Part shown: in pieces, positions 12,871 through 32,624 of the stretch
Numbering within the stretch: the stretch's first letter is position 1
Layout: every line of letters begins with the position of its first letter
IMG/VR virus record: IMGVR_UViG_3300028800_000057
From: a virus
Taxonomy: Duplodnaviria; Heunggongvirae; Uroviricota; Caudoviricetes
Strand: one strand, 5' to 3'
Length of the DNA: 64,000 nucleotides
The notes under the pieces: generated by a model
What the model saw: the letters and a program-made list of their open reading frames with translations, nothing else
Told to the model about the DNA's origin: nothing
Databases searched by the model: none
Program-made: the position numbers and the translations under genes

Positions 12871-12874
12871 CTAT

Positions 12875-13159: not shown

Positions 13160-13187
13160 CTAAACCTCTTATGGTAGGTTCCAGAGT

Positions 13188-13823: not shown

Positions 13824-13854
13824 CAGGGTATCGGGTTCCTCGTTTTAGTTACAT

Positions 13855-13927: not shown

Positions 13928-13931
13928 CTAT

Positions 13932-14004
13932 GCGGACATAGCTCAATTGGTAGAGTTTCTGCCTTCCAAGCAGATCGTTGAGGGTTCGAGTCCCTTTGTC
14001 CGCT
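13932..14004 (+). tRNA. tRNA-Gly(TCC)
   Basis: GCTCAATTGGTAGAG D-arm, anticodon arm TCTGC-CTTCCAA-GCAGA, T-arm GAGGGTTCGAGTCCCTT, CCA follows. Confidence 0.75.
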
Positions 14005-14008
14005 CCAG

Positions 14009-14034
14009 GGAGAATGCTTGCTCGGAAGTACATT
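14009..14034 (+). promoter_or_regulatory. conserved post-tRNA motif, copy F
   Basis: GGAGAATGCTTGCTCGGAAGTACATT after tRNA-Gly(TCC), upstream of ORF 14158. Confidence 0.4.
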
Positions 14035-14157
14035 TAGTTCAAACCTGAAATCCCCCCGCTACTTATGGGGGATCGCCTTATGGAGGCATCTTTCGGCTTC
14101 TCTTGTCTCCCTCAGTCTAATGAACTTATCCAGTGGGTAAGTGTGTTTGATGACCTA

Positions 14158-14982: not shown

Positions 14983-15177
14983 CTCCGCTCGTCTCATAGA
15001 TAATCATCCTATCAGATCGGATGTACATGAAGATGAAAGTGGTTCGAGTCTCGGCCACTGAGTTCGAATTGGAAGACGGTAGGGTATTTCCCCACGTCAC
15101 CCCACTCGAACCGGTTCCGACCCCCGAAGAGTTTCAAGTACATTACGACCTTTGGTCAGATCGGTTGAAGCGAAAGG

Positions 15178-15801: not shown

Positions 15802-17225
15802 AGAAGTGTAGGTTCTTCATGTTGCACTCCGAGTGCAATCCAGGGAAGGTTAAAGCTATCGAGGCCCTCCATGCTGAGTATGTGCTTTACGTTCGGATAT
15901 GCGTCCAGACGATGCTCTCCGCTCGCCGACTAAGCTTGCCCCGCTCGGAGAAGCAAGAGTTCTTTCCCCGAGCTGAGAACCTAACTTCACAGATTGAGAA
16001 GAACGCCCGTGATCATGCCATCCAGATCGTAAGTACCTGGGCCAAGGGGATCTATGCCAGGAAGCTCAAGACTTTCATCAGGTTATCCTTCAATGAAGGG
16101 ACTTTCGATGAGGACTTTCGGAAGCAACTCTGTACGGTCGGCAAGTATTTGGTTCACGATCCGAGTAAGACCGTGACCCAAGAGGCTATCAATCTGTATT
16201 GGGCTTGGCTCTCTGACCCAGAAGTAGTTGGAAACTTCCCAAGTGTGTCTAGTCGAATCCCAATGAGGATGTCTGAAAACACCTGCTCATTGGAAGATCC
16301 AGAAGAGGCTGTTCACGCTTATCTTTGGCTCAAGATCTCGACCTTAGTTTCTCGTAAGCTTGCCTGGCTCCCGCTGGTTGGAAACCCGTATGTCAAGAAG
16401 TCCTCTGATGTGGGTAAGGGGATTCATGCTAGAAAAGACCGAAAAGGCCGGTGGCGATTCGAAGCTGTTGACACCAAAGAATGGCTGATCTGTGAGGCGG
16501 AGCCAGACCTTCCAATGATCGGAGTAGATGTCGGGCTAAACGTAGTAGCGGCTACTTCGAGCGGACACACGTTTGGGGCAGACTTGAAACCCAAGTTTAA
16601 TCGGCTCTACAACAAGGTCAGGGCGGTTCGAGCGAACCGCCAAAGGCAGGGACTCAAAGAAAACAGCCCTAGACTCGACAGGCTTGAGTCCAAGCTCTCC
16701 GGCTTGACTAAGAGCATCACTGGACGGGTCTCCAATGAGCTTCTTCGAGCTTATCCAGAATCAGTCTTCGTCCTTGAGGACTTGGATCTTCGGGGTTGTC
16801 GTGGTCAAAAACGCTTTTGCTACAGAGCCTTAGCTCACGCTCTTGAGAGCAAAGCTCCGACCGATAAGGTGAATCCCGCTTATTCTAGTCAAACATGCCC
16901 TTCTTGTGGGCATGTCTCCAGGCTCAATCGGTCTGGAACCAGTTTCATCTGCCGCCAATGCGGCAGGATTTCACATGCTGATGTGGTAGGAGGGATCAAT
17001 CTGCTCAGACGTTCTGAGAGCAAACAGATTGGTCTCAATGATCACCCATCGGAAGTGAAGAGAATGCTTGTGAGGCTATACTGGTCTAGGAGGAATCCTA
17101 ACCAGGACTGTCCACAAGACTTCTTGAATAAATACGCGCCATTACCGTATGGCCGGAGGCTTACTACCAAGGGACGTTCTCGAAAGAGAAGCATTGGCAT
17201 AGCTTTTAATCAGGTAGTTGCTTGA
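15798..17225 (+). CDS. tnpB: TnpB (RuvC-like RNA-guided nuclease, IS605/IS607 family)
   Basis: RuvC-I (IGVDVGLN), RuvC-II (VFVLEDLD), zinc finger CPSCGH...CRQCG and RuvC-III (HADVVGGINL). Confidence 0.8.
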   Translation: MKKCRFFMLHSECNPGKVKAIEALHAEYVLYVRICVQTMLSARRLSLPRSEKQEFFPRAENLTSQIEKNARDHAIQIVSTWAKGIYARKLKTFIRLSFNEGTFDEDFRKQLCTVGKYLVHDPSKTVTQEAINLYWAWLSDPEVVGNFPSVSSRIPMRMSENTCSLEDPEEAVHAYLWLKISTLVSRKLAWLPLVGNPYVKKSSDVGKGIHARKDRKGRWRFEAVDTKEWLICEAEPDLPMIGVDVGLNVVAATSSGHTFGADLKPKFNRLYNKVRAVRANRQRQGLKENSPRLDRLESKLSGLTKSITGRVSNELLRAYPESVFVLEDLDLRGCRGQKRFCYRALAHALESKAPTDKVNPAYSSQTCPSCGHVSRLNRSGTSFICRQCGRISHADVVGGINLLRRSESKQIGLNDHPSEVKRMLVRLYWSRRNPNQDCPQDFLNKYAPLPYGRRLTTKGRSRKRSIGIAFNQVVA

Positions 17226-17379
17226 ACCCACGTAAGTTTAAGCAACTTCTTGAGTACGGTTGGACTGATCCAGGCTCAGGATTCTCAGGACAACCCTAAT
17301 ATTGTCAAGATTAAACTGGATGATATCAGTAGAATCATGTTCATCCCAGCTAACAAGTCTAGTAGTTTAGCTGATAGGG

Positions 17380-17964
17380 TTGCGACTCGTTGGTGTATTC
17401 AGCAGGGTGGCAATCGGTAAGGGTCCAATTAATCTCCCCGTAACTCCTGATATGCCCCTAAGTGAGCTTCAAGAGAAGTTGAAGGCTCATGTACGAGGCC
17501 CCGGCGCAGTCTGTCCAGTATGCCGTCAACTCGTGAGGATGGTTGAAAAAGAGCTGAGTGCCCCGATGGCGTACGTCCTCATTCTGATGTACCGTCACTT
17601 CCAGACGGCCTCTGACTGGCTCGACATGAACCAGTACATCTCAAACATGGTGGCGATTGGGTCCGAGGTGAAGGGTGGGGAGTGGTCGAAGATGAAGTAC
17701 TGGCAACTCATCGTCGAGCGCCCGCCGGAGAAGAAGTCAATCGTGAACCCCAAGCCTCCAGTCAAGACTCAGGGGATGTACAAGATGACAGAGCTTGGCG
17801 CAAGGTTCGTTCTCGGCAAGATCAAGATCCCTCGAAGTGTCTGGCTCTACAATGGCAAGGTCATCGAGGTACATAAGAAGTCCGTAAGCATTCAAGAATG
17901 CTTAGGAAAAGACTACAACTACGAAGCACTCATGGCTGGGAACCTAGGAAGCTTCGCAGTCTGA
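17380..17964 (+). CDS. hypothetical protein
   Basis: 194-aa ORF downstream of tnpB. Confidence 0.45.
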   Translation: MRLVGVFSRVAIGKGPINLPVTPDMPLSELQEKLKAHVRGPGAVCPVCRQLVRMVEKELSAPMAYVLILMYRHFQTASDWLDMNQYISNMVAIGSEVKGGEWSKMKYWQLIVERPPEKKSIVNPKPPVKTQGMYKMTELGARFVLGKIKIPRSVWLYNGKVIEVHKKSVSIQECLGKDYNYEALMAGNLGSFAV

Positions 17965-17969
17965 TTTAT

Positions 17970-18042
17970 GCCCCCATAGCTCAGTGGATAGAGCAAAGGT
18001 TTTCTAAACCTGAGGTCGAAAGTTCAAGTCTTTCTGGGGGTA
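17970..18042 (+). tRNA. tRNA-Arg(TCT)
   Basis: GCTCAGTGGATAGAGC D-arm, anticodon loop TTTCTAA, T-arm GAAAGTTCAAGTCTTTC, CCA follows. Confidence 0.7.
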
Positions 18043-18047
18043 CCAAT

Positions 18048-18120
18048 GTCCGCGCAGCTCGATTGGAGGAGCAACAGCTTGCGAAGCTGGAGGTTGGAGG
18101 TTCGACCCCTCTCGCGGACG
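18048..18120 (+). tRNA. tRNA-Arg(GCG)
   Basis: Acceptor GTCCGCG/CGCGGAC perfect, anticodon loop TTGCGAA, T-arm GGAGGTTCGACCCCTCT, CCA follows. Confidence 0.65.
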
Positions 18121-18125
18121 CCAAT

Positions 18126-18199
18126 GATCTCGTAGCATAACGGACTTGTGCAGCGGCCTCCGAAGCCGACGACTGTGGGTTCGAATCCCACCGGGATCA
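18126..18199 (+). tRNA. tRNA-Arg(CCG)
   Basis: Anticodon loop CTCCGAA, T-arm GTGGGTTCGAATCCCAC, CCA follows. The D-arm is weak. Confidence 0.5.
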
Positions 18200-18221
18200 C
18201 CAACTACGGTGTATTAGGGCC

Positions 18222-18557
18222 ATGGCTGTAATCACAATCAATGGCAAACGCATAGAGGTTGATGGCTCAGGTACTGTCTCAATCAACAATGGGGTTATCA
18301 AGGTTGATGGGGTGACCGTCGAGAATGGCCTTCATGGAGTCGTCGAAGTCAAGTGGGAAGGTCCTCTTGCTAACCTTCGATCTGATGCTTCAGTCACTTG
18401 TGGGGACGTCACTGGGAACGTGAGTGCGGGAGGTAGTGTCCATGCTGGTAACATTCAATCTACAGTGACCGCCGGTGGGAGTGTCCACGCTGATGACATC
18501 ATCGGGAACGTTAATGCTGGAGGAAGTGTCAACTGTAGAAGTCAAAGATCTCGTTAG
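18222..18557 (+). CDS. small repeat protein (three copies of G-N-V-x-A-G-G-S-V-H-A)
   Basis: 111-aa ORF with internal tandem repeats. Confidence 0.4.
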   Translation: MAVITINGKRIEVDGSGTVSINNGVIKVDGVTVENGLHGVVEVKWEGPLANLRSDASVTCGDVTGNVSAGGSVHAGNIQSTVTAGGSVHADDIIGNVNAGGSVNCRSQRSR

Positions 18558-18561
18558 TTAC

Positions 18562-18635
18562 ACCCCCATAGCTCAATTGGATAGAGCAGAGGTTTTCGAA
18601 GCCTAAGGTTGGAGATTCGAGTTCTCCTGGGGGTA
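18562..18635 (+). tRNA. tRNA-Arg(TCG)
   Basis: GCTCAATTGGATAGAGC D-arm, anticodon loop TTTCGAA, T-arm GGAGATTCGAGTTCTCC, CCA follows. Confidence 0.6.
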
Positions 18636-18640
18636 CCAAT

Positions 18641-18713
18641 GCTGATGTAGCTCAATCGGTAGAGCGGCGCTTTCATAAGGCGAAGGTTGCGGGTTCGAGT
18701 CCCGCTTTCAGCA
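18641..18713 (+). tRNA. tRNA-Met(CAT) (or Ile2)
   Basis: GCTCAATCGGTAGAGC D-arm, anticodon loop TTCATAA, T-arm GCGGGTTCGAGTCCCGC, CCA follows. Confidence 0.65.
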
Positions 18714-18743
18714 CCAAAGTTCTCACTGGGTGTAGTACCTAGG

Positions 18744-18923
18744 ATGGTGAGAATACTCCGAAGGTCGAAGGACGAAGTAGTGGTCATGGACAACGAAGAC
18801 ATAGTTGGTTCTGTAGTCAACCAAGTTGGATGTGTTCAGGTTGCAACTATTGACGGTTCTTTCGTGGTTGTCGACGATGTAGTCAGAGCGGCCAAGCTCC
18901 TCGATGAGCCTTGGCCTGAGTAA
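18744..18923 (+). CDS. small hypothetical protein
   Basis: The ORF track 18687..18923 begins inside a tRNA. The internal ATG at 18744 lies beyond the tRNA. Confidence 0.3.
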   Translation: MVRILRRSKDEVVVMDNEDIVGSVVNQVGCVQVATIDGSFVVVDDVVRAAKLLDEPWPE

Positions 18924-18930
18924 CTTTCAT

Positions 18931-19005
18931 GCCCCTGTAGCTCAATTGGTAGAGCGCTGGTCCTACAAACCAGAGGTTTTGTACGTTCAAGTCGTATCGG
19001 GGGTA
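18931..19005 (+). tRNA. tRNA-Val(TAC) with C32-C33 anticodon loop
   Basis: GCTCAATTGGTAGAGC D-arm, anticodon arm CTGGT-CCTACAA-ACCAG, T-loop TTCAAGT. Confidence 0.5.
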
Positions 19006-19010
19006 CTAAC

Positions 19011-19095
19011 GCACGAGTGGCGGAACTAGGCAGACGCTCCGGACTTAGAATCCGGCGGGGTAATTCCCATGGAGGTTCAATTCCTCTCTCGTGCA
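19011..19095 (+). tRNA. tRNA-Leu(TAG), type II
   Basis: Acceptor GCACGAG/CTCGTGC perfect, anticodon arm CCGGA-CTTAGAA-TCCGG, long variable arm, T-arm GGAGGTTCAATTCCTCT, CCA follows. Confidence 0.75.
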
Positions 19096-19354
19096 CCAAT
19101 CTCCAATGAAAGAAGGTTTTATGCTCAAGTTCAAGATACGATGGCTTAGTTCAAGACTCGTTATGGGTCGTGGCCTAAGCTGGGTGGTATAGCTGAATCC
19201 AATAGCTCAGTTCTGAGAGGCTCAGCTGCATTCATCGCCTCATTCAGGCAAATGCTAGCGATCTCTGCTCGGAATTGAGCCGGTTTTCTTGGGTTCACCA
19301 AAACTAAGGGCATAGAACTCTCACCTTCAATACGCCGTTTTGTCTTAGATCTTC

Positions 19355-19585
19355 CTACTCACCTGTTGGTAAATAGGTGACCTTCCTAGAAGGTTCATTC
19401 ACGATCGAGGCCTTCTCAATACAGTACCTTGTTCTGAGGTAGAAGTCACCGTCTCTAGCAATCGTCTCCGCAAGATCTGGGGTGGCTCCTCGAACAGTGC
19501 ACTTTCCAGTGTACGTTCGGTTGAACTCGCAATTTATCGAACAACACCTTGTATCAAACGGGATAATTACTCTTAGAGCTGGCAT
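19355..19585 (-). CDS. small Cys-rich hypothetical protein
   Basis: 76-aa ORF on the minus strand between the tRNA block and an AT-rich region. Confidence 0.3.
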   Translation of the reverse strand: MPALRVIIPFDTRCCSINCEFNRTYTGKCTVRGATPDLAETIARDGDFYLRTRYCIEKASIVNEPSRKVTYLPTGE

Positions 19586-19737
19586 GCCATTACTCTACTC
19601 AATAAGATGATAAAACTCAATGACATTTAAGCAACCTTCGATTAATCAAGTCTTCATTCATTGATACATGAGGCTTACAGACCTCAACGTAGGCATGGCT
19701 CGCTCTTAGTTATCTTCTTGTTGGGTTTTCTTCGTAG

Positions 19738-21015
19738 ATGCGCGAAGACGTCTTAACTCTCCGAGTAGCTGCTCGCTTCATTCAAGCAGACATCTTGACC
19801 AAGCAATGGCTCATGGGGGTCAAGAGGGGCTGGACTGCCGTCATCAAGTCCCCGCATGAGATGGATGACAAGCACAAGGCTCTCATTGAGTTCCTGAGGA
19901 ACCTAGGGGATCAGGTACTCTTCCAAAGGCATGGCATGAACATTGTGTTCACCGGTTCTAGGGAGCGGATCAAGTTCGAGAACCTTTTGGCAAAGACCAA
20001 AGGTCAGGTTTTCGAGGTGTACACAGAATACGAAAAAATAGCCAGTAATTACAGAGAGGTAAGTGAGAAGCGCGAGAAGTTCCTGGATGAGATCGAAGAG
20101 CGAACTGGGGACAACATCCGAAAGCTTCACGGATCTGATGAGTTCATTCGCAAATACCCTGAATACGAGCCATATCACGCAAAGTGGACTAAGGCCATGG
20201 ATGCTGTTGATCAGTATCGGTGGCATCCAGAAGTGGTGTGGGCTCCGGCTACCAGAGTCTTCGATGCTTTGATGAAGCACCTCTACGCTGATGCCAAGGC
20301 TACCGCTGAGTACAAGAAGGAACACGGGGAAGATCCAATCGATGACTTCTACTCTACGGTTCCTAAGGAATTTGATCTCAACAGCGCCAAGGTTGTTGTC
20401 ATTGATGACTCAGTGAGTCGGAATGACGTTCGTGATTACATCAAGTACATCAACCGAGCACAACAGATGTTGAAAAACAATGGTTTCGGAAAGTTGTGGT
20501 ACGGGGTGATGTTTGTTGAGGCCAAGAATCACAAGAAAACCCAAGAAGAGATTGAGCTTGCTCAGAAGTGGGGTTACAGTAGTTCTGGGGATGCTGGGGA
20601 GTATAACCACGATCTGGACCAAGTCTATATTAGGAATAAGCCAGAGGGTTTCGTTACCCGTATCGTGATCCATGAGCTTGGGCACCGATACTGGTTCAAG
20701 TTCATGACCCCAGCGAATCGAGCTCGATTCAATGCCTTAGTTCAAACCAAGACTACAGACAGATTCAGGGATTACCCGCAGGGACCTACTGATGAAGAGG
20801 GTAATCCTAAGCCGGTTGCACCATTGGGTGAGTACGCTAGCTCCAACATTGAAGAGGCTTTCGCGGAAGTGTTTGAGGGTTATGTGTCTGGAGGGGGTCT
20901 CACTCGAGACCAACTTGAGTCTTTCCGATCAGTTCTATCCTCTGAGCGGAACCAAGAATATCCTTTGGTTTCTAGTAGTGGACACTATCAGATCCGTCGG
21001 GTAGTAGATCTTTAG
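19738..21015 (+). CDS. putative zinc metallopeptidase (HExxH) with RVAARF leader
   Basis: VIHELGHRYW HExxH motif. N-terminus MREDVLTLRVAARFIQA. Confidence 0.5.
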   Translation: MREDVLTLRVAARFIQADILTKQWLMGVKRGWTAVIKSPHEMDDKHKALIEFLRNLGDQVLFQRHGMNIVFTGSRERIKFENLLAKTKGQVFEVYTEYEKIASNYREVSEKREKFLDEIEERTGDNIRKLHGSDEFIRKYPEYEPYHAKWTKAMDAVDQYRWHPEVVWAPATRVFDALMKHLYADAKATAEYKKEHGEDPIDDFYSTVPKEFDLNSAKVVVIDDSVSRNDVRDYIKYINRAQQMLKNNGFGKLWYGVMFVEAKNHKKTQEEIELAQKWGYSSSGDAGEYNHDLDQVYIRNKPEGFVTRIVIHELGHRYWFKFMTPANRARFNALVQTKTTDRFRDYPQGPTDEEGNPKPVAPLGEYASSNIEEAFAEVFEGYVSGGGLTRDQLESFRSVLSSERNQEYPLVSSSGHYQIRRVVDL

Positions 21016-21020
21016 TTCAG

Positions 21021-21169
21021 TCATGATCACCTTCATCTTGTTCGTTGACAAGCTCTTCTAGAGCCGCTATTGCTTCATCAATGCCTTCGAAAGGTCCTGG
21101 TGAATGTTTCTTTGCCATAGCAATGTACAGTTTGATTAGGTCTCTCTGGGCTGGTGTCATAAATTTCAT
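21021..21169 (-). CDS. small ORF translationally coupled (ATGA overlap) to the tail-fiber-like gene
   Basis: 49-aa minus-strand ORF MKFMTPAQRDLIKLYIAMAKK.... Its ATG overlaps the TGA stop of the 21166..23631 gene. Confidence 0.3.
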
Positions 21170-23631
21170 AGATCAGCGGTTACCCGCTTACAGTGGTTAG
21201 TCGAGTCTACCCTAACAATAGCTGTCTTGCCTCCGGCAATCGTAACTCCGGTATCACCTGCCGCCCTAGAGATAACGAACATCGGGTTTGTGTTGTTATT
21301 TACTACCGTGAACTGAAGTCCAGGTATCCCAGGTAGGCCAACACCACTCGCTGAGGCTGAGGCCGATATCTCTATGGTGGTATTGTAGCACTCACTTAGT
21401 AGTATGAATCGATTGCTGCCAGCATACGAGAGAACCCCACCGGTCTGCTGAAATGTAACCAAACCCGGGGCAATCACGAGAAATTGTTGATTCTCTGTTA
21501 TAGCACTAAAGTCACAGTTTGGCCCTATCTCAATAGTACCACTTGAGCAAGAGATCCCAACACCACCAGCAAAGGTTATGTTGGACAGTCTGATACGAGC
21601 TGCTGTCTGTACACGCAAACAATAACCTGTAGGTCCCGTCTCTATTCTCCCACCATCCAGTAGTAGAGTACCCGTAGTACCAACATCAACCGCGATTCCA
21701 CTTTTCATCTTCAGATCTATGTCGCGGATGATGTTAGTGCCGACTCCAGATACAAACACCCCTGTTGCACCAGGATCAGTTCGAGTGCTGTGGTGATGCC
21801 ACTGTGATATGGTAGCTGCCCCAGAAATAACAATTCCAGTAAGACACTCGTCAGTATTCAGCTGGGTGAATGAGGTTCCAGTTGCAGTAGCGTCGATATA
21901 AATACCAATAGGAGCCTTGGTATAGCTGCAATTTGTAAATGTTGCGGTCTCATTATTGCGATCAACTAGAAGCCCGTACTGGGGGTTCTTAGTGCTCGAT
22001 AACCCAAGGGTTTTTGTTCTTTTAGAACCCCAAAGCCACTGCCCTACTTCACTTCCAATGTCAGCACATGCAACGAATGCACAATCTAAACAACCAAAAG
22101 TACCATCCACAAATACTTGTGCAACTTGACCCCAAACACAGTCAGAGGTTATGTTCCCAATGGCGTTGCAGGCATAACAGTCCATGAAGGAGTACCCCTG
22201 CGCTCTGGCATTGCGGATTCGATTATTCCACAGCAAGGTTCCTTCATTTGACTGACCGTAAAAGCCATTGCTCCCTATGTAGTAGGGGTTATTCGGAAAT
22301 TCAATCGTTGAGTTCGATAGTGTGCATTCGCGACTTGCTACATCAAATGCAAGAGTAGCAGTCCCACCGAGGAACGGGATCTGGTCATTCGTTAGTTGAT
22401 AGTTGAGTCCATTGACTGTAGCCCTTTGGGCCTGCGTGAACTCAATAAGCTGGTTTGCGTACCCACTGACATTAGCTCCTGTGAAGTCAAGTAAGATGTC
22501 CTTCGGGTAGTCGGGGGCACTGGTAACTGAGTCGCCAATTGAATGCTCCCACACAATAGATCGGTCGAGCAGAACAGCAACATAGGTTGGAACACCAGCG
22601 GTGAGACCTAGAGCTGTGTTTGCGGTACCAGCTCCGATCACAATCGACTTCGAGGAGATGAGTAGGTTGTTCCCTGATGCACCACCAGTTCCCACTTGCA
22701 GCAAAGAAGGCCACTTAACAACTATCGCTGCAATGAGAGTGATAAGGGTTGTTGTATTCCCAGCTCCGGATAACGTAAGTGTCTGCTCTCCAGCCCCATC
22801 AATGTTGAGCTTGAGGGTCAGTCCGTTGAGAGTCCCGCCACCCCCATAGAGAGTGGTGGCCGTTACGTCAGTGATCCCTATGGTGGAAACACCAAGTTCC
22901 TTGATAGTATATGTACACCCGCTCACTTGCGGGGTAACTCCCATGTACTGCTCAACCCAGATAACGTACCCAACTGCAGGAGTTATACCCCAGGGGTTGA
23001 CTATAATTATGTTGTTGTTGGCAGCCCTGGTTGCAGGAGGAGAAGCAACGGTGCTCCCAGGGGACAGGTTAGCTCTCCCATACAACCCGAAGCGATAGGT
23101 CATGTCAAACCTGAGATTTGTACCTGGAGCACACGTCATGTACTCCCCACTACTCAGGTTTGGAGTAGAATTTGGTGGAGCATAAGTACCACTACCATCA
23201 GGGGGTGTCTTGAACTGAATTGTATTCCCGGCATTCAGTTGTACTCGATACCCAGTACTTGCTGCTGAAGCTAATTTAGCAGTAAATGCTGGCATGTCAT
23301 CTACACTACCATCGATGGCTACATAGTTGAGAGTCTTGTTCTCAGCTTCGATCTCCGTTCGCATCTCATCGAGTCCACCACCAGTGAGAACAGCTACAAC
23401 GGTCGAACCTGGTGCATGTGAAACCGCGGTAGTCCCTTCGATCCCACGGGTCACTGTCCAAGAGGTACCCGAGACTCCGGTTACCAACATGAGTTCTTGG
23501 CCAATTCGAATCCTGAACTCAGGTTGAGTCGGAAAATGGGTAGTACTCTGGACTGAGAAGGTTAGGTCACCAGCTCCAACCGATGAGGACAAAGCTGTAC
23601 TTGCTTGATTGACGAAGCGTTCAGTTGTCAC
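21166..23631 (-). CDS. tail-fibre / receptor-binding-like structural protein (beta-helix-like, Gly/Thr/Asn/Ser-rich)
   Basis: 821-aa minus-strand ORF. Its composition and repeats resemble a tail fibre or pectate-lyase fold. Confidence 0.5.
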   Translation of the reverse strand: MTTERFVNQASTALSSSVGAGDLTFSVQSTTHFPTQPEFRIRIGQELMLVTGVSGTSWTVTRGIEGTTAVSHAPGSTVVAVLTGGGLDEMRTEIEAENKTLNYVAIDGSVDDMPAFTAKLASAASTGYRVQLNAGNTIQFKTPPDGSGTYAPPNSTPNLSSGEYMTCAPGTNLRFDMTYRFGLYGRANLSPGSTVASPPATRAANNNIIIVNPWGITPAVGYVIWVEQYMGVTPQVSGCTYTIKELGVSTIGITDVTATTLYGGGGTLNGLTLKLNIDGAGEQTLTLSGAGNTTTLITLIAAIVVKWPSLLQVGTGGASGNNLLISSKSIVIGAGTANTALGLTAGVPTYVAVLLDRSIVWEHSIGDSVTSAPDYPKDILLDFTGANVSGYANQLIEFTQAQRATVNGLNYQLTNDQIPFLGGTATLAFDVASRECTLSNSTIEFPNNPYYIGSNGFYGQSNEGTLLWNNRIRNARAQGYSFMDCYACNAIGNITSDCVWGQVAQVFVDGTFGCLDCAFVACADIGSEVGQWLWGSKRTKTLGLSSTKNPQYGLLVDRNNETATFTNCSYTKAPIGIYIDATATGTSFTQLNTDECLTGIVISGAATISQWHHHSTRTDPGATGVFVSGVGTNIIRDIDLKMKSGIAVDVGTTGTLLLDGGRIETGPTGYCLRVQTAARIRLSNITFAGGVGISCSSGTIEIGPNCDFSAITENQQFLVIAPGLVTFQQTGGVLSYAGSNRFILLSECYNTTIEISASASASGVGLPGIPGLQFTVVNNNTNPMFVISRAAGDTGVTIAGGKTAIVRVDSTNHCKRVTADL

Positions 23632-24312
23632 ACCCGAAGCAGGCCCATAGAGACTCTATTGGCCAGTTTAGTTCCCAAGAACTTGATCGCGGTGACCCCC
23701 TCAGATCACCAGAAAATCTCGGATTCAATTCGATGCTTGGATCAACTAAATCAAAGAAGATGTAGCTCTTGACGAAAAACGTCAGAGATGTCAATAGGGA
23801 ACCACTCAGGATTCTTCAATCGACCAGTTGCTTCGTCTCTATGCTTGTGAGAAAGTCTTACTGTGAGTTGAGCTTGCAGAAGTTGGTTCGGTGGTGGAGT
23901 TCGAACTCACCATTGAACCTGAGATTCTCTGGAACCTCTCTGGCTGTGCAAGTACCACCCCTCTTGTTGGTGCAATTATCGGCACAGAGGTTATCACCTT
24001 TGGTTCGGATTATTGATAGGAGCTGGTGAGTTTCTGAGGGTGGGGCTGGCCTGGCTTTGCCTTTTAAATGGCAGCTGCCCAATAAATCCAACACTTGCCT
24101 AATAATTAACCGGCTAGACGAACCAACCATTTTTGAACTTCCAAATACCACAGCAATCACCCACAGCCCTACTACCTGCAAACTCATTCAGCTCGATACC
24201 CTAAGCTCAAAACGAATCAGCACAAATGCCAGACAAAAAAGCAAAGGCCACCTCAGAGGATAGCCTTTGGTCAGTGTCATTGTGGTTAGTTTAATTCATG
24301 TCTATCCGGTTG

Positions 24313-24639
24313 TTACCCATTTCTTACTGACCAATTTTGTAAAGGGCGTGCTGTTGCGAACGAATTCCGAAGCTCAGCCAATTCTACCTGTTCAGCCTTT
24401 CGGTTCCGCTGCGGGAGCCACGCAGTGACGGAAATGACTAACGACTTATCAAGGTGGCGCTCTTGAGCTTCAGCGTAAGCATGGTTTCGACAAAAGGCGT
24501 TTTCTCTACTCCACCGCGAGCCTTCGCGAATGGCGTGCGTGATGGGACGGTACTGCCTATTTTCTATAAGGCAACGTTGGCAGTCAAAGTGGCGAGGCAT
24601 TGAACGTTCAACCGTACCACAGCGTGCACTGTCGGCCAA
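24313..24639 (-). CDS. hypothetical Cys/His-rich protein inside an inverted-repeat-flanked element
   Basis: 108-aa ORF, locally higher GC, flanked by 16-bp perfect inverted repeats at 24053-24068 and 24689-24704. Confidence 0.3.
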   Translation of the reverse strand: MADSARCGTVERSMPRHFDCQRCLIENRQYRPITHAIREGSRWSRENAFCRNHAYAEAQERHLDKSLVISVTAWLPQRNRKAEQVELAELRNSFATARPLQNWSVRNG

Positions 24640-24701
24640 GGTTTGGCCGACAGTGGGATGTTGCCTTTTAAGTCCCCTTGGTGAGGTATTTAAAAGGCAA
24701 A

Positions 24702-24767
24702 GCCGGGTGGTATACCGGCGCCCGTCCTATTAACGGGTGGCGTAGGGGTTCGATTCCTCCATGACCT
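24702..24767 (+). pseudogene. tRNA-like pseudogene (Ile-TAT-like anticodon arm) lacking a pairing acceptor stem
   Basis: D-arm GCCG...CGGC, anticodon arm CCCGT-CCTATTA-ACGGG, T-arm AGGGGTTCGATTCCTCC. The flanks do not pair. Its 5' end coincides with the right inverted repeat. Confidence 0.35.
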
Positions 24768-24772
24768 ACTGA

Positions 24773-24845
24773 GGGAGACTTCTTGACGGGTGTTGAGCAC
24801 GCTGTGACACGGCGTTGATGATGGGTTCGAGTCCCATGTCTCCTA
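24773..24845 (+). tRNA. tRNA-Val(GAC)
   Basis: Acceptor GGGAGAC/GTCTCCT, anticodon arm ACGCT-GTGACAC-GGCGT, T-arm ATGGGTTCGAGTCCCAT. Confidence 0.55.
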
Positions 24846-24912
24846 CTATCTAAAGGTGAGTTAGCTAGGTGGTGTAGTTGATGTCTAAACGTCTTGTACA
24901 TTATCCATACCT

Positions 24913-25686
24913 ATGACCTACTCTCGGGATGTTTTGGCTTCGGCGGTTTCCAAGAGCACATCGATCTTGGGTGTGGTCCATAACCTTGGATTGCAGTACA
25001 GGAGTGGCTCCGCTTGGGTAGCTGTTAAACGGGCCATACTTGAGCAAGGGCTGTCCACATCCCATTTCTGTGGAAGAGCCCATAATAAGGGTAAACCTAG
25101 CGATAAGAAGCTATCTCCTAGTCAGGTTCTGGTTGTTACTGATGGTAGGAACAGAACTAAACCAAAATTGCTTCGTCGCGCTATGACCGAAAGCGGGGTA
25201 CTCTACCAATGCTCATCTTGTGGGGTTGGCCCTGAATGGAATGGCAAGAAGTTGGTGTTAGAGGTGGATCACAAGAATGGCTTGTGGTGTGATTGCAGGT
25301 TAGGTAACCTTAGGTTTTTATGCCCTAACTGCCACTCTCAGGAGCCCACGTCTGTACGTAAGAAGACTCTGGTGCACGCTAAGTGCTCTGGTTGCGGGGT
25401 TGATATCGTATCTAGGGTTGATTCGAATGGGGTTCAAATGATTTCATTTTGTAGTCCGTCCTGCGGGTCAAAGTTCAGCCCCAGGGCAATCCAAGAGAAA
25501 GGTTCTTGGCCAACTAATTCAATCCTAAGTACTATGGTCTGGTCTATGCCAGTAGATAGATTGGCTAAAGAGATCGGAGTTTCTGGGTCTGCTGTCAAAA
25601 AGAGGTGTAGGCGTTTGGGGATCAACACCCCACCACGAGGGTACTGGTCGAAAAAGGTTGACCCTAGTGTATCTTCTGGGGTATGA
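24913..25686 (+). CDS. HNH homing endonuclease
   Basis: CSSCGVGPEWNGKKLVLEVDHKNG...NLRFLCPNCH motif and a C-terminal HTH-like tail. Paralog of 4406..5125 (minus strand). Confidence 0.65.
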   Translation: MTYSRDVLASAVSKSTSILGVVHNLGLQYRSGSAWVAVKRAILEQGLSTSHFCGRAHNKGKPSDKKLSPSQVLVVTDGRNRTKPKLLRRAMTESGVLYQCSSCGVGPEWNGKKLVLEVDHKNGLWCDCRLGNLRFLCPNCHSQEPTSVRKKTLVHAKCSGCGVDIVSRVDSNGVQMISFCSPSCGSKFSPRAIQEKGSWPTNSILSTMVWSMPVDRLAKEIGVSGSAVKKRCRRLGINTPPRGYWSKKVDPSVSSGV

Positions 25687-25747
25687 TTATCCTAATCGAT
25701 GGTTGTGATTACCATTAACTGGGATGTGTAGCAATCATCGTCTTTAT

Positions 25748-26094
25748 GGGAATGATCGGTTTCGACGTTGGGTGAAAGGATCTCTTGCGTGTAAGCGGCT
25801 CTCGAACCGCTCATCAATCGAGAAACGTTAATTGCGAACGACAATGCAATCGCCGCTGCGGCCTAAGAAACCGCGCGACCAGTTCCTAGAGAGATAGTCT
25901 TGGTATCGAAGGAGCTGCCAATCACAAGGCTGGCTTACCTCACGGGCTCCCGGTGAGGTGGCGAGATAAACAGGGTGATAGGTCGTAGGCCGAATCCACG
26001 AACTCAGTCGAGGGGGATACTTCGACTACGCACGTGAATGAGAGAGATACCAGACAACTGACGGACCGGGGTTCGATTCCCCGCATTTCCACCA
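25748..26094 (+). ncRNA. ssrA: tmRNA (ssrA), tag peptide ANDNAIAAAA
   Basis: 5' GGGAATGATCGGTTTCGACG and 3' ACGGACCGGGGTTCGATTCCCCGCATTTCC-A-CCA. The acceptor halves are complementary. Internal reading frame GCG AAC GAC AAT GCA ATC GCC GCT GCG GCC TAA at 25834-25866. Confidence 0.8.
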
Positions 26095-26096
26095 AC

Positions 26097-26127
26097 GAAG
26101 CCTCCTAACGGGGGCTTCGGTGTTTAA
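26097..26127 (+). terminator. rho-independent terminator after tmRNA
   Basis: GAAGCC-TCCTAACGGG-GGCTTC followed by GTGTTT. Confidence 0.5.
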
Positions 26128-26191
26128 TGGTTCTGTGAAAACACATTGGAGAAACATCATGAAAAGGCGAAGGCGAAGGTAAAGGTGCACC

Positions 26192-27192: not shown

Positions 27193-27393
27193 CCGAGACC
27201 GCGCTAACGCTTGTCACCCCTTGGAAGTAACCCTTCAAGGTTACAGGCACCCTGCTTGGGTCTCTTTTTCAAAGACGTAGCCGCGCTTTAGTAGCTTGGG
27301 CAAAGTCTCGGACTTAACGGAAACTGTTTGGATTTGGGAGAGTGTCCAATCTCCGCATCCCAACGTCACTCACGTTCAGCGAGAGTATGTATC

Positions 27394-28854
27394 ATGCTAT
27401 TAAATCCGCAATTTACGTTTGAAAAAGTTCGTTTTGACCAGTCCACCGACCTGCACTTGGTGGTATCCGTCACTGCACCCAAGAGCGATTGGCAAACCCA
27501 TCGCCCTCCGTTGTGCATCATCCCAGCTGTTGATCGATCGGGTTCAATGCGCGGGGAGAAGATGGCCTACACGAAGAGGTCATTGCTCAAGCTGATTGAA
27601 CACCTAACGGCGGACGATACCTTTGGTTTGGTGAGCTTCGCTACCGACTCTACGGTTGACTTTCCTGCTGAGAAGATGACCCCGGATGCCAAGGCGCGAG
27701 CCAAGAAGGTTGTCGACGGGTACCGAGACTACGGCAACACCTTCCTCTCCGGAGGCCTCATGAAGGCACTAGAGATGGTGAGTGGACTAGACCTTGGTGA
27801 TACTACGATCACCCGTATCATCCTATTCACTGACGGGCAGCCAAACATTGGTGTGACCCAATTGGATGGGTTGGCTGGTTTAGTTGAAACTAGTCGTGGT
27901 CGCGCGAGTGTTTCAGCTTTTGGGTATGGCTCTGATGCTAACCAAGAGTTGTTGAACGCCATGGCTACAAAAGGTGCTGGCAACTATGCCTTCATCCAGG
28001 ACCCTGACTCGGCTCTTGCGGCTTTCGGCAAGGAACTTGGTGGTCTACTAAGCACCTATGCTCAGGACCTGATCATCGAGCTGACCCCGCACGAAGGTAA
28101 CCAAGTACTTGATATCGTTTCAGACTTTGACGTTGAGGAGATCATCACCGGTGAAGCTCGGATCAAGATCCCCCACATCCTGTCCGAGGAGACGATTGAC
28201 ATTGTCATCAAGGCCAAACTTGCTGCTCAGAAGCATCCAGGTCCACGTCAAGTCAATGCTGTTAGCGCCAAATTGTCTTGTCAGGTACTCGGGGCTGATG
28301 GAAAGATGCAAATTGAAACGGCTGAGGGTAACGCCAAGGTTCAGTTCGTCAAAGTTGGTGAGGAGCAGACTACTCCGACCAAGGAAGTCGATGAGTTGGT
28401 AGCACGGGCTCAGCTTCTTCAGGTGCAGAATCAAGCTGAGGCGGCCGCTCAACGTGGTGACTATGCCACTGCTGGACTCTGCTTCGATAGTATGAGTGCC
28501 AACTTCTCAGCACGTGGCCTAGGTGGAGTAGCTGCAGCTTCACATAGTCTTCGTTCAAAGTATACAGATCAGCACGTCTATGCCAAGAGCGCTGGTAGTC
28601 GTATGGGTTTGAATCGAGGGTTGAATAGGGCTCGGGCCGCTTCAGCCATGGGAGATAAGGATCTTGAGCTGCTCTGTAGCCTTGGGATTAGCGACACTAC
28701 AAGTGCTCAGGATGGTATGATGAGGAGCTTTCAAGAGCCCACCGTCGAGCCTGCAGTCATCAATAACCCGCTTGGTGCAATCGGTATCGAACCCCCAAAG
28801 GAAGAGCCAGTAGTTCGGTCCCCATTGACCAAACGACGTACTACTCAATGGTAA
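27394..28854 (+). CDS. von Willebrand factor A (vWA) domain protein
   Basis: MIDAS motif DRSGSM...T...TDGQPN. An ATG with the upstream RBS-like GAGAG is chosen. The ORF track starts at 27328. Confidence 0.6.
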   Translation: MLLNPQFTFEKVRFDQSTDLHLVVSVTAPKSDWQTHRPPLCIIPAVDRSGSMRGEKMAYTKRSLLKLIEHLTADDTFGLVSFATDSTVDFPAEKMTPDAKARAKKVVDGYRDYGNTFLSGGLMKALEMVSGLDLGDTTITRIILFTDGQPNIGVTQLDGLAGLVETSRGRASVSAFGYGSDANQELLNAMATKGAGNYAFIQDPDSALAAFGKELGGLLSTYAQDLIIELTPHEGNQVLDIVSDFDVEEIITGEARIKIPHILSEETIDIVIKAKLAAQKHPGPRQVNAVSAKLSCQVLGADGKMQIETAEGNAKVQFVKVGEEQTTPTKEVDELVARAQLLQVQNQAEAAAQRGDYATAGLCFDSMSANFSARGLGGVAAASHSLRSKYTDQHVYAKSAGSRMGLNRGLNRARAASAMGDKDLELLCSLGISDTTSAQDGMMRSFQEPTVEPAVINNPLGAIGIEPPKEEPVVRSPLTKRRTTQW

Positions 28855-30120: not shown

Positions 30121-31524
30121 ATGTCCTTCAAGTATCAGGCTCAAAAAGTCGGTGACGCCCATTACGTCCTTCCGCGTTGCGGAACGATGAAAGTGGAGGC
30201 GCATGCTTTTATATCAGAACCTCTCTTCGAGGCTTCTGAGGAGCAGCTTTGGAGGCAACTTGCCAGTGGAGCATCCTATGATGGAGTGACTGGTGCTTAT
30301 TTGATGCCTGATTGCCACCCTGGGTTTGGCATTCCGACTGGGTGTGTCCTAATCACGGACAAAACTCTCATCCAAGCTGGGTCAGGGTACGACATCTCTT
30401 GTGGGGTTCTGTACTTGAAAGTCAATCTCTCTGCTAATTCGGTCAGGAGCTGGGATAAGCGGGAGCGGTGGGTTCAGGAGGTCGAGAAGCGGATCTCTAC
30501 GGGGAAGAACTCTTTTGTCCCTAATATGCGTCCATCCTTCAATAGCCGTCAGGTGCAGGACATTCTTCGATACGGTGCCAAGGCTATTGGGGTGCCACGG
30601 GAGCTCTGCGAGCGGCATTACATACCGATTCCGGATGACACTAAGCTTACAAAGATTGATCGTGCCTACTCAAGGGTGCTTCCCCATATAGCTTCTGTTG
30701 GCGGGGGTAACCACTTTGTGGAGATGCAGGTCGACAGGGATACTGGAGAAGTATTCGTCATGATCCATTGCGGATCCCGCGGGTATGGGTGGCATACGGC
30801 AAACCATTACTTTTACGAAGGGGCTAAGCTACGGAACCTCCACCCAGATGCTCGAGAGGATTCCTGGCTTTACATTGACGAACCTCTTGGGCGAGAGTAC
30901 TGGGCATACCATAATTCGGCCGCTAACTTCGCTATCGCCAATAGGCATCTGATTGTACGTGGGATTCAAGAGTCAATTCAGGAGGTCTTCAACACAGACT
31001 CTGAAGTTTACTACGAGATCTCTCACAACTTGGTCCAAGAGGAAACCCTGGTACTTCCGGATGGTACTACGAAGAAGGGGTTCGTTCACCGGAAGGGTGC
31101 AACCCGAGCATTCCCAGCTGGTCACCCGGAACTGATCGGGACCCGCTGGGAGAAGACCGGCCACCCATGTCTAATACCGGGATCAATGATGGATGGAGCT
31201 GCTATCCTGTTTGCTGAACCAGGGGCCTACCAAACTGCTTGCTCAGTGAATCATGGATCTGGTAGAAAGATGGCTCGTGGTGAAGCCAAGAGGAAGTTGG
31301 AGCCCGAGCAGCTCCGGATTGACGATGAGATGAGGACCGTCAAGCGCGAGTTTGCTGGAGTGTCCATTGAGGGTATTGTTGGAAACCACCAGCACACGCC
31401 ATTGGATGAATGCGAGCACGTGTACAAGGACCTCGATGAGGTCTTGGATGTTCTTGAGGCAAACAAGATCGCGAAGGTTGCCCATCGATTGTATCCTGTA
31501 GCTAATATTAAGGGAAGCGACTGA
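30121..31524 (+). CDS. rtcB: RtcB RNA ligase (3'-phosphate/5'-OH)
   Basis: Conserved RtcB blocks, including HCGSRGYGWHTANHY and NHGSGR, with Cys/His metal ligands. 467 aa. Confidence 0.85.
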   Translation: MSFKYQAQKVGDAHYVLPRCGTMKVEAHAFISEPLFEASEEQLWRQLASGASYDGVTGAYLMPDCHPGFGIPTGCVLITDKTLIQAGSGYDISCGVLYLKVNLSANSVRSWDKRERWVQEVEKRISTGKNSFVPNMRPSFNSRQVQDILRYGAKAIGVPRELCERHYIPIPDDTKLTKIDRAYSRVLPHIASVGGGNHFVEMQVDRDTGEVFVMIHCGSRGYGWHTANHYFYEGAKLRNLHPDAREDSWLYIDEPLGREYWAYHNSAANFAIANRHLIVRGIQESIQEVFNTDSEVYYEISHNLVQEETLVLPDGTTKKGFVHRKGATRAFPAGHPELIGTRWEKTGHPCLIPGSMMDGAAILFAEPGAYQTACSVNHGSGRKMARGEAKRKLEPEQLRIDDEMRTVKREFAGVSIEGIVGNHQHTPLDECEHVYKDLDEVLDVLEANKIAKVAHRLYPVANIKGSD

Positions 31525-31525
31525 A

Positions 31526-32062
31526 ATGGACGAGAAGACCTTAGTCAAGAAGAGCAGGCACCTGAGTAAGGTTCTCCGTCATGAACCGGATTCAGTAGGT
31601 ATTACGCTCACTGAAGCCGGTTGGGCTCCAATATCGTCTATTCTTTCGGCCTTGAACCTCAAGCGAGAAGAACTCAACCAAGTCGTAGCAGAGAACAACA
31701 AGAATCGATTCGAGTTCTCCGAGAACGGGATGTTCATCCGAGCTCGTCAAGGGCACTCAGTAGAAGTGGATCTGGGGTACCCAGAGGCTACCCCACCGGA
31801 TACTCTCTACCATGGTACTTCACGTCAAACAGTATCGGTGGTTCTTCGAGATGGCATCAAGAAGATGCTTCGACACCATGTGCACATGTCACCGGATCTC
31901 GAGACAGCTAAGGTTGTGGCCTCGCGCCGGTCCGACCCAAAAATCCTTAAGGTTGATTCTAAGTCCATGTCAGCTGCAGGGATCAAGTTCTACCTAACAG
32001 GTAATGGTGTATGGTTGACTGATTATGTCGACCCAAAGTACGTCAGCGAGTACCACTCCTGA
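31526..32062 (+). CDS. kptA: Tpt1/KptA RNA 2'-phosphotransferase
   Basis: LSKVLRHEP...GWAPI...RARQGHS...HGTS pattern typical of KptA. 178 aa. Confidence 0.75.
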   Translation: MDEKTLVKKSRHLSKVLRHEPDSVGITLTEAGWAPISSILSALNLKREELNQVVAENNKNRFEFSENGMFIRARQGHSVEVDLGYPEATPPDTLYHGTSRQTVSVVLRDGIKKMLRHHVHMSPDLETAKVVASRRSDPKILKVDSKSMSAAGIKFYLTGNGVWLTDYVDPKYVSEYHS

Positions 32063-32624
32063 GATTTATGGTAAGAACTCGAAGCCACAAGGGGTGACCC
32101 CTTCTGTTGTACTGATCAATCCTAAGTTTCCGCATAATGTTGGAGCCGCCTTACGGGCGGCTTCTTGTTATGGAGCCAAGCAAGTTTGGTTCACAGGGGA
32201 TCGAGTGGAGCTTGGTCTCAAAGGGTCGAAGCGTCTTCCTCGTGAAGAGCGTATGAAGGGGTACAGGGACGTCGAGCTTCGACATTATGACCGGGTATTT
32301 GATCAGTTCGAGGATGTAGTACCGGTAGCGGTAGAGCTACGACCGAACTCCGAGAGCCTTCCTCAGTTTGATCACCCGAAGAACGCCATCTACTTATTTG
32401 GTCCTGAGGATGGCTCTATCCCGCAGATGTACCTGCAGCATTGCCATAGATTCGTGGTCATACCCACACGACATTGCGTGAATCTAGCGGCTGCTGTCTA
32501 CACTGTCCTCTATGATCGTCAATGCAAATTGTGTCCTGATATCACTATCCAAGACAGCCTAGCTGAACAACGATTCGACTTTCCGGAGAACGTTGAGTTA
32601 GCTACCTACCTCGGATTGGGTTGA
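32025..32624 (+). CDS. SpoU/TrmH-family RNA 2'-O-ribose methyltransferase
   Basis: SpoU motifs HNVGAALRAA, LFGPEDGSIP and IPTRHCVNLAAAVYTVLY. Confidence 0.6.
   Translation: MSTQSTSASTTPEIYGKNSKPQGVTPSVVLINPKFPHNVGAALRAASCYGAKQVWFTGDRVELGLKGSKRLPREERMKGYRDVELRHYDRVFDQFEDVVPVAVELRPNSESLPQFDHPKNAIYLFGPEDGSIPQMYLQHCHRFVVIPTRHCVNLAAAVYTVLYDRQCKLCPDITIQDSLAEQRFDFPENVELATYLGLG

Follow-up and report, generated by a model that had tools for sequence, protein, structure and literature searches.

A survey of phage genomes found tmRNAs in 402 of 18,146 (2.3%), and the tmRNAs of phages usually follow the lineage of the host (Buchholz et al. 2022, PMC9004378). Phage Melnitz is an exception, showing that the ancestry of a phage tmRNA can differ from the current host (PMC9004378). 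Huge phages have been reported to include both tmRNAs and SmpB in their complement of translation genes (Al-Shayeb et al. 2020, PMC7162821); the Sinorhizobium jumbo phage AP-J-162 carries a tmRNA together with 66 tRNA genes (PMC11242549). The original prediction for the locus described here, which was made from the letters of the DNA alone, called a viral tmRNA uncommon; the figure of 2.3% of phage genomes (PMC9004378) agrees with that description, but there is nonetheless ample documentation of phage tmRNAs, above all from huge phages (PMC7162821).

The locus lies within a stretch of viral DNA of 64,000 nucleotides, the whole of which was analysed and is referred to below as the window. Judged by covariance-model score, by structure and by conservation in related genomes, the RNA encoded there is a real, intact and conserved standard one-piece tmRNA (SsrA) of a huge phage.

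Identification of the tmRNA gene

The original prediction placed a tmRNA with the tag ANDNAIAAAA at positions 25748–26094 and proposed a search with Rfam models or ARAGORN. Both searches call a tmRNA and agree exactly with that interval. ARAGORN reported a single tmRNA in the window, at 25748–26094 on the + strand, with the tag ANDNAIAAAA followed by a stop, and the Rfam model RF00023 matched the same interval over its full length (1–374 of 374) with 111.8 bits and an E-value of 7.2e-43, the gathering score of the model being 47 bits. The gene (ssrA) is 347 nt long, has an encoded CCA and has syntenic homologues in five of six related viral contigs. Its order is unpermuted, with no permutation flag from ARAGORN, and within the Rfam clan RF00023 was the best model, ahead of the alpha, beta and cyano two-piece models. 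A match by chance is excluded on the basis of the E-value and of the conservation in related genomes.

The two ends of the gene form the tRNA-like domain that had been proposed, with a complementary acceptor stem and CCA that can be read directly in the sequence. The 5′ strand of the acceptor stem, GGGAATG at 25748–25754 (+), forms seven base pairs with CATTTCC at 26084–26090, and is followed at the 3′ end by the discriminator A (26091) and the encoded CCA (26092–26094). The third acceptor pair is G3:U70, the alanine identity pair, and a G:U at this position is invariant, being found in 28 of 28 distinct sequences. The neighbouring pairs 4 to 6 covary (GC, AU, CG and UA) and the acceptor stem as a whole is 98.5% paired. 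The T-arm of the domain, CGGGG-TTCGATT-CCCCG at 26067–26083 (+), is 100% paired, with covariation at two of its five pairs.

Gene neighbourhood and conservation in related phages

Upstream of the tmRNA, at 130–19098 (+), is an array of at least 37 tRNA genes (about 38) detected with ARAGORN and Rfam. Downstream by 1.2 kb lies a gene for a VWA-domain protein (27328–28854, +; Pfam VWA, E 6e-16), which serves as the syntenic anchor, followed by a cluster for RNA repair and modification at 30121–32624 (+), in which Pfam identified an RtcB ligase (E 7e-84), a Tpt1/KptA 2′-phosphotransferase (PTS_2-RNA, E 1e-45) and a SpoU methylase (E 5e-16). A further RNA-repair gene near the tmRNA encodes HAD_SAK_1.

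Relatives of the locus were located in IMG/VR by searching with the VWA protein, that is, independently of the RNA. This search yielded six related contigs of 82–452 kb, with 38–75% protein identity, five of which (L001, L002, L003, L006 and L007) have a tmRNA at the syntenic place, in the order tRNA array, tmRNA, VWA gene, with Rfam scores of 105–121 bits. Their tags are ANDNAIAEAA (L001), ANDNALAAAA (L002), ANDNSIADRLVA (L003), ANDNAVQAAA (L006) and ANDNGTAFAAAA (L007), the tmRNA of L007 having been missed by ARAGORN. In the sixth contig, L009, no tmRNA was found within 6 kb of the VWA anchor gene. A close relative, L179, came from a later pattern scan and has a tag identical to that of the window and 82% RNA identity to it. 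The pattern scan of IMG/VR returned 64 stretches with an ANDNA-type tmRNA signature, many of them on contigs of 200–480 kb. A DNA search of 50,697 deposited phage records with the tmRNA and with 12 kb around it turned up no relative, and exact 20–27-mers from the ends of the tmRNA had no match in IMG/VR, which places the genome of the window itself outside both collections. Among deposited phages, the best match to the recombinase encoded in the window was a 595-kb uncultured phage, with 34% identity. That the tmRNA is conserved in relatives favours vertical inheritance over a single capture event.

Directly 3′ of the CCA, at 26096–26129 (+), a scan identified a hairpin resembling an intrinsic terminator (CGAAGCCTCC-TAAC-GGGGGCTTCG) with a T-rich tail, the scan match itself covering 26096–26119. 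The terminator hairpin of the original prediction is accordingly present, and it is kept in three relatives (L001, L002 and L179) with compensatory changes in the stem. On the 5′ side, the window has one match to a σ70-like promoter (TTGACC, an 18-nt spacer and TATGAT; 25658–25687, +), 60 nt upstream of the mature 5′ end, where 1.1 matches are expected by chance; it is partly conserved in L002 and is not evident in L001 or L179. Being at chance level and poorly conserved, this match was set aside as the promoter of the tmRNA. Transcription of the tmRNA by read-through from upstream genes is possible.

Coding selection on the tag and its C-terminal end

The tag frame occupies 25834–25866 (+), from the resume codon GCG at 25834 through ten codons to the stop codon TAA at 25864–25866, an assignment that draws on the sequence, ARAGORN and a comparison of codons. 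It reads GCG AAC GAC AAT GCA ATC GCC GCT GCG GCC TAA, giving ANDNAIAAAA, so that all eleven codons proposed earlier were confirmed, and its TAA lies inside the loop of helix 5. Positions −5 and −4 relative to the resume codon are U and A in the window, as in E. coli tmRNA (U85 and A86).

Comparison of the tag codons of the window with those of relatives revealed eight synonymous differences and one non-synonymous difference for L001, five and one for L002, and five and none for L179. This excess of synonymous change is a signature of selection on the peptide, indicating that the tag is likely to be under coding selection and its frame read by ribosomes.

The end of the tag was compared with bacterial tags obtained by scanning bacterial genomes with a pattern in which the 5′ TTCGAC motif was linked to a resume region coding for ANDNA[LIVMF]A. 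Among the matches listed, the bacterial tags included ANDNAIALAA (30), ANDNAVALAA (24) and ANDNALALAA (12), all in one-piece tmRNAs, and 68 of 68 tags of this class end in ALAA. Among the 14 distinct phage tags of the Myxococcota-affiliated group, none ends in LAA; the endings are AAA (seven), IAA (three), and EAA, MAA, QAA and LVA (one each), and the terminal Ala-Ala is retained in 13. The original prediction had proposed comparing the tag with that of the host: with ANDNAIALAA as the presumed host tag, the two have ANDNAI and the Ala-Ala end in common but differ in ending in ALAA versus AAAA.

For ClpXP, the Ala-Ala-COO− end is the most important determinant (Fei et al. 2020, PMC7652416), and mutation of the antepenultimate Leu raises KM modestly for the E. 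coli enzyme (PMC7652416). The phage tag should therefore remain a degron because it retains the Ala-Ala end (PMC7652416), and the earlier description of ANDNAIAAAA as an SsrA-type degron is a reasonable one. The idea that AAAA in place of ALAA makes an attenuated degron with weak ClpXP recognition was downgraded on the same grounds, namely the dominance of Ala-Ala and the modest contribution of Leu (PMC7652416). A functional shift of the phage tag is possible, although the data do not indicate one.

The contrast between the phage and bacterial tag ends, together with the setting of the gene, nevertheless bears on what the tmRNA might be selected for. The tmRNA of the clade may run a phage-specific form of trans-translation, in which the altered tag changes the choice of protease or adaptor or the speed of degradation, while the island of tRNA, tmRNA and RNA-repair genes might neutralise host defences that cut RNA or stall ribosomes; taken as one, these proposals are unlikely. 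Stated as a selected role, the tmRNA would work but would be specialised, either out-competing the host tmRNA with a Leu-less tag or countering a defence that stalls ribosomes or blocks trans-translation. The complete absence of LAA from the phage tags, set against its universal presence in the bacterial tags among the matches listed, speaks for such a role, but the varied replacements of Leu (A, E, I, M and Q) look more like relaxed constraint than directed change, in 14 phage sequences that are not phylogenetically independent. Likewise, the position of the gene among tRNA genes and near those for RtcB, Tpt1 and HAD_SAK_1 fits a theme of protection against RNA damage, and the tmRNA has long been retained in the phage clade, but nearly all of the phage tags keep the Ala-Ala end, and the effect of Leu on KM is modest in E. 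coli (PMC7652416). We consider a specialised role of this kind distinctly unlikely, and favour a tmRNA that serves ordinary ribosome rescue. The suggestion made with the original prediction, that a viral tmRNA could manipulate host ribosome rescue or proteolysis, is accordingly a hypothesis, the capacity indicated being only that for ordinary trans-translation.

Selection on the structure of the tmRNA

Two approaches were used to examine the structure. In a formal count of pairs, the full structure including pseudoknots was placed on 29 aligned tmRNAs of phages and Polyangiaceae, a set chosen since PK1 of L003, the most divergent member of the clade, is misaligned when a plain MAFFT alignment is limited to the six tmRNAs of the clade. 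Canonical pairs occupied 89.7% of the cells across the 29 sequences, compared with 75.4% after shuffling and 38–50% when the partners were slid by one to three columns, and 60 of the 89 pairs showed double-sided changes. The covariation score was 0.44, a value matched by none of 500 shuffles, versus 0.18. Two of the 89 pairs are non-canonical in the tmRNA of the window. When applied to the plain six-member MAFFT alignment, RNAalifold predicted 85 pairs, 44 of which are preserved through two-sided changes.

The second approach was a structure-free screen of 30 aligned tmRNAs of phages and Polyangiaceae, in which pairs of columns that covary and stack were sought. It picked out the acceptor stem and helix 2, the two stems each of PK1 and PK2, as well as the closing stem of PK3, one hairpin of PK4 and the T-arm.

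The screen and the formal count place PK1 at 25794–25823 (+), with stem 1 at nt 47–51/60–64, which is 100% paired, and the closing stem 2 at nt 53–58/71–76, which is 92% paired and has double-sided changes in four of its six pairs. Helix 5, which holds the stop codon in its loop (nt 107–130; 25854–25877, +), was placed from the Rfam alignment and is 83% paired, with four of seven pairs covarying. PK2 (25880–25930, +; screen and formal count) consists of nt 133–143/159–170 and a closing stem at nt 150–154/179–183; the closing stem is 100% paired with three of five pairs covarying, the inner stem is 96% paired with four of four covarying, and the outer stem (helix 9) is just 59% paired on the 29-sequence alignment.

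The formal count places PK3 at 25937–25977 (+), with a hairpin at nt 190–196/206–212 and a closing stem at nt 200–204/226–230. The closing stem is 93.6% paired with all five pairs covarying, and the hairpin, which falls in a poorly aligning region, is 71% paired. The PK4 region (25983–26026, +; formal count) contains two hairpins, the first at nt 236–254 (68.5% paired) and the second at nt 260–264/275–279 (100% paired, four of five pairs covarying). Neither the screen nor the formal count resolved a stem closing a pseudoknot at PK4, where the Rfam posterior probabilities are low. Helices 9, 12 and 14 score low because their columns align poorly between the group of the window and the bacteria. 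The pseudoknot-rich middle domain on which the original prediction depended is present, the closing stems of PK1 to PK3 being backed by covariation, and from the pattern of paired change the structure of the tmRNA is under selection.

These results bear on whether the gene could be a decaying relic that performs no trans-translation, either an imprecisely excised host ssrA or an attachment-site homologue. Host ssrA is a common site of prophage integration, and prophages can contain fragments of ssrA (PMC9004378); the gene in the window, by comparison, is full length, with very few non-canonical pairs and with compensatory changes throughout. Many IMG/VR contigs do end beside host smpB or ssrA, but across divergent phages the synteny and the terminator of this gene are conserved and the tag has an excess of synonymous change. 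A serine recombinase is encoded 10 kb upstream of the tmRNA; it is, however, part of an IS607-like element together with TnpB and is missing from relatives at the matching position. By eye, the 3′ end of the gene has just about 13 contiguous identical bases in common with Polyangiaceae ssrA. A relic or attP origin is very improbable, and we rejected it on the full length of the gene, the covariation and the coding signature, in favour of a functional tmRNA.

A huge-phage replicon

The window encodes a T4-style set of replication and recombination proteins (a Dda/RecD-like helicase, a UvsX-like recombinase, an SbcCD-like nuclease and a clamp loader), several HNH and GIY-YIG endonucleases, GroEL, a class II ribonucleotide reductase and an NAD-dependent ligase. 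No genes for capsid, portal or terminase were found within the 64 kb. A second contig, L198, is 100% identical to positions 52134–64000 of the window over 11,867 nt, and 3–8 kb beyond the window end it encodes a large terminase, matched by PHROG 9 and 2 (E 1e-16), together with a portal protein matched by phrog_16240 (E 3e-26). In addition, a 443,068-bp contig encodes an exact copy of the TnpB protein of the window. Because the terminase and portal genes lie on an identical contig and an exact window protein on one of 443 kb, we conclude from these contigs that the replicon carrying the tmRNA is a huge phage. The tmRNA is separated from the left and right ends of the window by 25.7 kb and 37.9 kb, respectively, and does not sit at a junction between prophage and host.

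That the window is instead non-viral, a fragment of a bacterial chromosome or megaplasmid or a chimeric assembly, would fit its own lack of capsid, portal and terminase genes and the similar sets of translation genes on large plasmids (Al-Shayeb et al., PMC7162821), but it is exceedingly improbable given the terminase and portal genes on the contig identical over 11.9 kb, the recurrence of the tRNA–tmRNA–VWA arrangement on independent contigs from different samples, a tmRNA GC content that fits the phage and not the bacterial relatives, and the T4-type replication genes and many homing endonucleases in the window.

Affinity to Polyangiaceae tmRNAs and the likely host

The scan of bacterial genomes returned at least 120 stretches, and about 70 of the 80 loci listed belong to Myxococcota. 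Among these matches listed were Polyangiaceae, Kofleriaceae, Sandaracinaceae, Labilithrix and Haliangium. The nearest bacterial tmRNAs among the matches listed form a Polyangiaceae cluster with the tag ANDNAIALAA, to which the tmRNA of the window is 68–69% identical overall. Because the bacterial tmRNAs used for comparison had been chosen by their tag type, with other tag types outside the sample, two controls were used. In the PK2–PK4 domain the identity to the Polyangiaceae cluster is 60%, versus 41–45% to Kofleriaceae, other Myxococcota and viral tmRNAs of the ANDNAF type. When the tag columns were left out, a member of the Polyangiaceae cluster was the closest bacterial sequence in 200 of 200 column bootstraps, within the tag-selected set of matches listed.

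The phage tmRNA has a GC content of 54.5% in a genome of 50% GC, compared with about 61.5% for Polyangiaceae tmRNAs in loci of about 66% GC. This closeness to the composition of the phage fits long residence in the phage rather than recent capture. Taken with the sequence affinities, it makes an old capture of the tmRNA from a Polyangiaceae-like myxobacterium probable.

A donor of this kind would also be the likely host lineage, and a Polyangiaceae-like host is a reasonable proposal that rests on one gene and on the usual agreement of phage tmRNAs with the host lineage (PMC9004378). The overall GC content of the phage (50%) is far from that of Polyangiaceae loci (about 66%), which counts against the host inference. 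No cultured phage is known for Polyangiaceae. The other probes gave no host information: relatives of the IS607-like TnpB with 84–88% identity were found on contigs of up to 510 kb, and searches with GroEL and the recombinase returned distant matches (at most 45% identity), which were uninformative about host and clade alike.

Probable dependence on host SmpB and proposed function

Searches with Pfam and phmmer found no SmpB in the ORFs of the window, in flanks of 10 kb on each side or in the loci of related phages, the genome being about 443 kb. A scan of IMG/VR with an alignment of myxobacterial SmpB found none on contigs of the clade among the 80 of 312 matches listed, which were mainly host smpB genes at the ends of prophage contigs. 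We infer that the phage tmRNA depends on SmpB of the host.

The proposed steps follow what is established for tmRNA. After trimming of the transcript to its tRNA-like end, the host AlaRS would recognise G3:U70 and load alanine onto the RNA. Together with SmpB and EF-Tu, the charged tmRNA would enter ribosomes that have stalled on mRNAs that are broken or lack a stop codon. Translation would then restart at the GCG at 25834 and add ANDNAIAAAA, the ribosome being freed at the TAA, and the product, ending in Ala-Ala, would pass to proteolysis of the ClpXP type. After its capture, the gene would have been inherited vertically within the phage clade while drifting toward the base composition of the phage. 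The likely benefit would lie in sustaining the supply of free ribosomes during infection, in combination with the phage tRNAs, RtcB and Tpt1, for example where host nucleases cut mRNAs or tRNAs.

That the tmRNA functions at all we infer from the conservation of its identity elements and from the coding-type conservation of its tag. The explanation as a whole, in which a functional one-piece tmRNA of a huge tailed phage descends from an old capture from a Polyangiaceae-like bacterium and contributes to the upkeep of ribosomes, is in our judgement highly probable on the genomic evidence assembled here.

Comparison with known systems

The tmRNAs of Polyangiaceae resemble that of the window throughout. 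Both have a tRNA-like domain with G3:U70, PK1, a tag beginning ANDNAI, PK2–PK4 and a T-arm, both place the stop codon in the loop of helix 5, and blocks of sequence are common to the two even in the variable pseudoknot domain. They differ at the end of the tag, which is ALAA in Polyangiaceae and AAAA in the phage, and in the acceptor stem, which is GGGGGCG in Polyangiaceae and GGGAATG in the phage. The neighbourhoods also differ, in that the phage tmRNA lies by a tRNA array and homing endonucleases, whereas five bacterial loci have smpB within a few kilobases of ssrA.

Mycobacteriophages of Cluster C (e.g. Bxz1) are large myoviruses in which, as here, a one-piece tmRNA adjoins a block of tRNA genes. 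Their tmRNAs differ from that of the window in host phylum and in tag family.

Huge phages (PMC7162821) and AP-J-162 (PMC11242549) likewise combine a tmRNA, detected with ARAGORN, with a very large set of tRNAs and translation genes in genomes of at least 400 kb. Some of the huge phages encode SmpB (PMC7162821), whereas none was found here in the window, its flanks and related loci, which make up part of the genome. The marine phages Melnitz, a phage of OM43, and the pelagimyophages (PMC9004378) also carry a complete tmRNA in a phage of lytic type, with a phylogeny that points to a donor or host, and the role proposed for the Melnitz tmRNA, upkeep of the hijacked translation machinery (PMC9004378), is the one proposed here. 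In contrast to the one-piece tmRNA of the window, that of Melnitz is circularly permuted, in two pieces and under a glutamine riboswitch; Rfam had no riboswitch match at the tmRNA of the window.

The gene described here is a well-supported addition to the known class of phage tmRNAs, and is conserved across a whole clade. Its history suggests that a phage tmRNA can persist for a long time under both structural and coding selection, beyond recent pick-up. Used as a marker of host or donor, the tmRNA provides a testable hypothesis of a Polyangiaceae (Myxococcota) host for a clade of uncultured phages, known here from contigs of 83–452 kb and lacking GenBank relatives, and the consistent loss of the host-type LAA end offers a small, testable lead on how phages may tune the fate of tagged proteins. 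In sum, phages bearing tmRNAs are already known, and what this locus adds to them is the evidence for long-term selection, an affinity to Polyangiaceae that serves as a lead to the host, and the loss of Leu from the end of the tag.

The tRNA array and the block upstream of the tmRNA gene

Comparison of the window with two related viral contigs recovered through their VWA protein, L001 and L002, revealed two segments that set the window phage apart. The distance from the last tRNA gene to the tmRNA is ~6.6 kb in the window (19100-25700), but only 385-919 nt in L001 and L002, which makes the intervening block look like an insertion peculiar to the window phage. This block contains minus-strand genes, including one (21166-23631) whose 821-aa beta-helix product shows weak matches to tail fibres, as well as an HNH/HTH endonuclease ORF (24913-25686). 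The second segment, an IS607-like pair within the tRNA array (15178-17225), consists of a serine resolvase with a MerR-type HTH (15178-15801) followed by a TnpB/Cas12f-like protein (15798-17225), and L001 and L002 have no such pair at the corresponding position. Several metagenome contigs carry exact copies of this element, and other contigs, reaching 510 kb in length, have relatives of 84-88% identity; judged from these sequence matches, the element appears to be in circulation among huge phages.

Additional tRNA-like genes and RNA-repair genes

Rfam identified two more tRNA-like genes in the window (1742-1825 and 1981-2054, 38.0 and 39.8 bits), neither of which was called by ARAGORN, bringing the tRNA count of the window to at least 39. 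Unusual tRNA matches were also found in the related contigs. The Rfam tRNA match at L002 5875-6002 (47.1 bits) is 128 nt long, a normal tRNA being far shorter; it may represent a tRNA gene interrupted by an intron or an insertion. Downstream of the VWA gene, at a distance of 0.8-1.6 kb, three other relatives showed weak tRNA-Sec-like matches (L006 8509-8593, L007 9059-9142 and L009 8125-8212); at 34-37 bits these fall short of the gathering score (47) and may be uncalled tRNAs with long variable arms.

The window also encodes an RtcB ligase, a Tpt1/KptA RNA 2'-phosphotransferase and a SpoU methylase in consecutive genes (30121-32624). The tRNA array itself contains, at 9590-10144, the gene for a HAD-domain protein of the 'Swiss Army Knife' type. 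This RNA-repair gene set suggests that tRNAs or other RNAs are mended by the phage after cleavage.

A conserved short ORF downstream of the tmRNA gene

A tiny ORF, MKRRRRR* (26159-26182; ATG AAA AGG CGA AGG CGA AGG TAA), occupies part of the interval from the tmRNA terminator to the HNH gene downstream, with GGAG before it at 26148-26151 and the HNH ORF starting after it at 26192. The ORF is conserved at the peptide level in L001, in L002, whose copy has one synonymous change, and in the close relative L179, whose version reads MKKRRRR* with several nucleotide changes, but is not present in more distant relatives. This run of consecutive Arg codons might function as a leader or as a coupled upstream ORF. 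Among the tRNA-Arg genes of the window phage are ones that carry the anticodons CCT and TCG.

SmpB matches and tmRNA variants in IMG/VR

Nearly all of the listed SmpB matches (80 of 312 in IMG/VR) lie at a contig end or no more than ~3 kb from one, and the contigs carrying these listed matches are mostly 10-60 kb. Such placement is the pattern expected for host smpB/ssrA flanks at prophage boundaries, and calls for caution when 'viral' SmpB genes are counted.

Among the related contigs, the tmRNA of L007 (4542-4887) was not called by ARAGORN despite an Rfam score of 114 bits. Its tag is ANDNGTAFAAAA, and ACGACT stands directly 5' of its resume codon, in contrast to TAAYT or TAGTT in the other clade members. 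More broadly, the IMG/VR census of ANDNA-type tmRNA signatures (L134-L197) revealed ANDNA-starting tags on many viral contigs, which range from 200 to 480 kb in length and from 29 to 66% in GC; among the tags are a separate ANDNAF... group and, on four contigs, one of 28 residues, ANDNAFDFTAMSFTGNTVANDSKFALAA.
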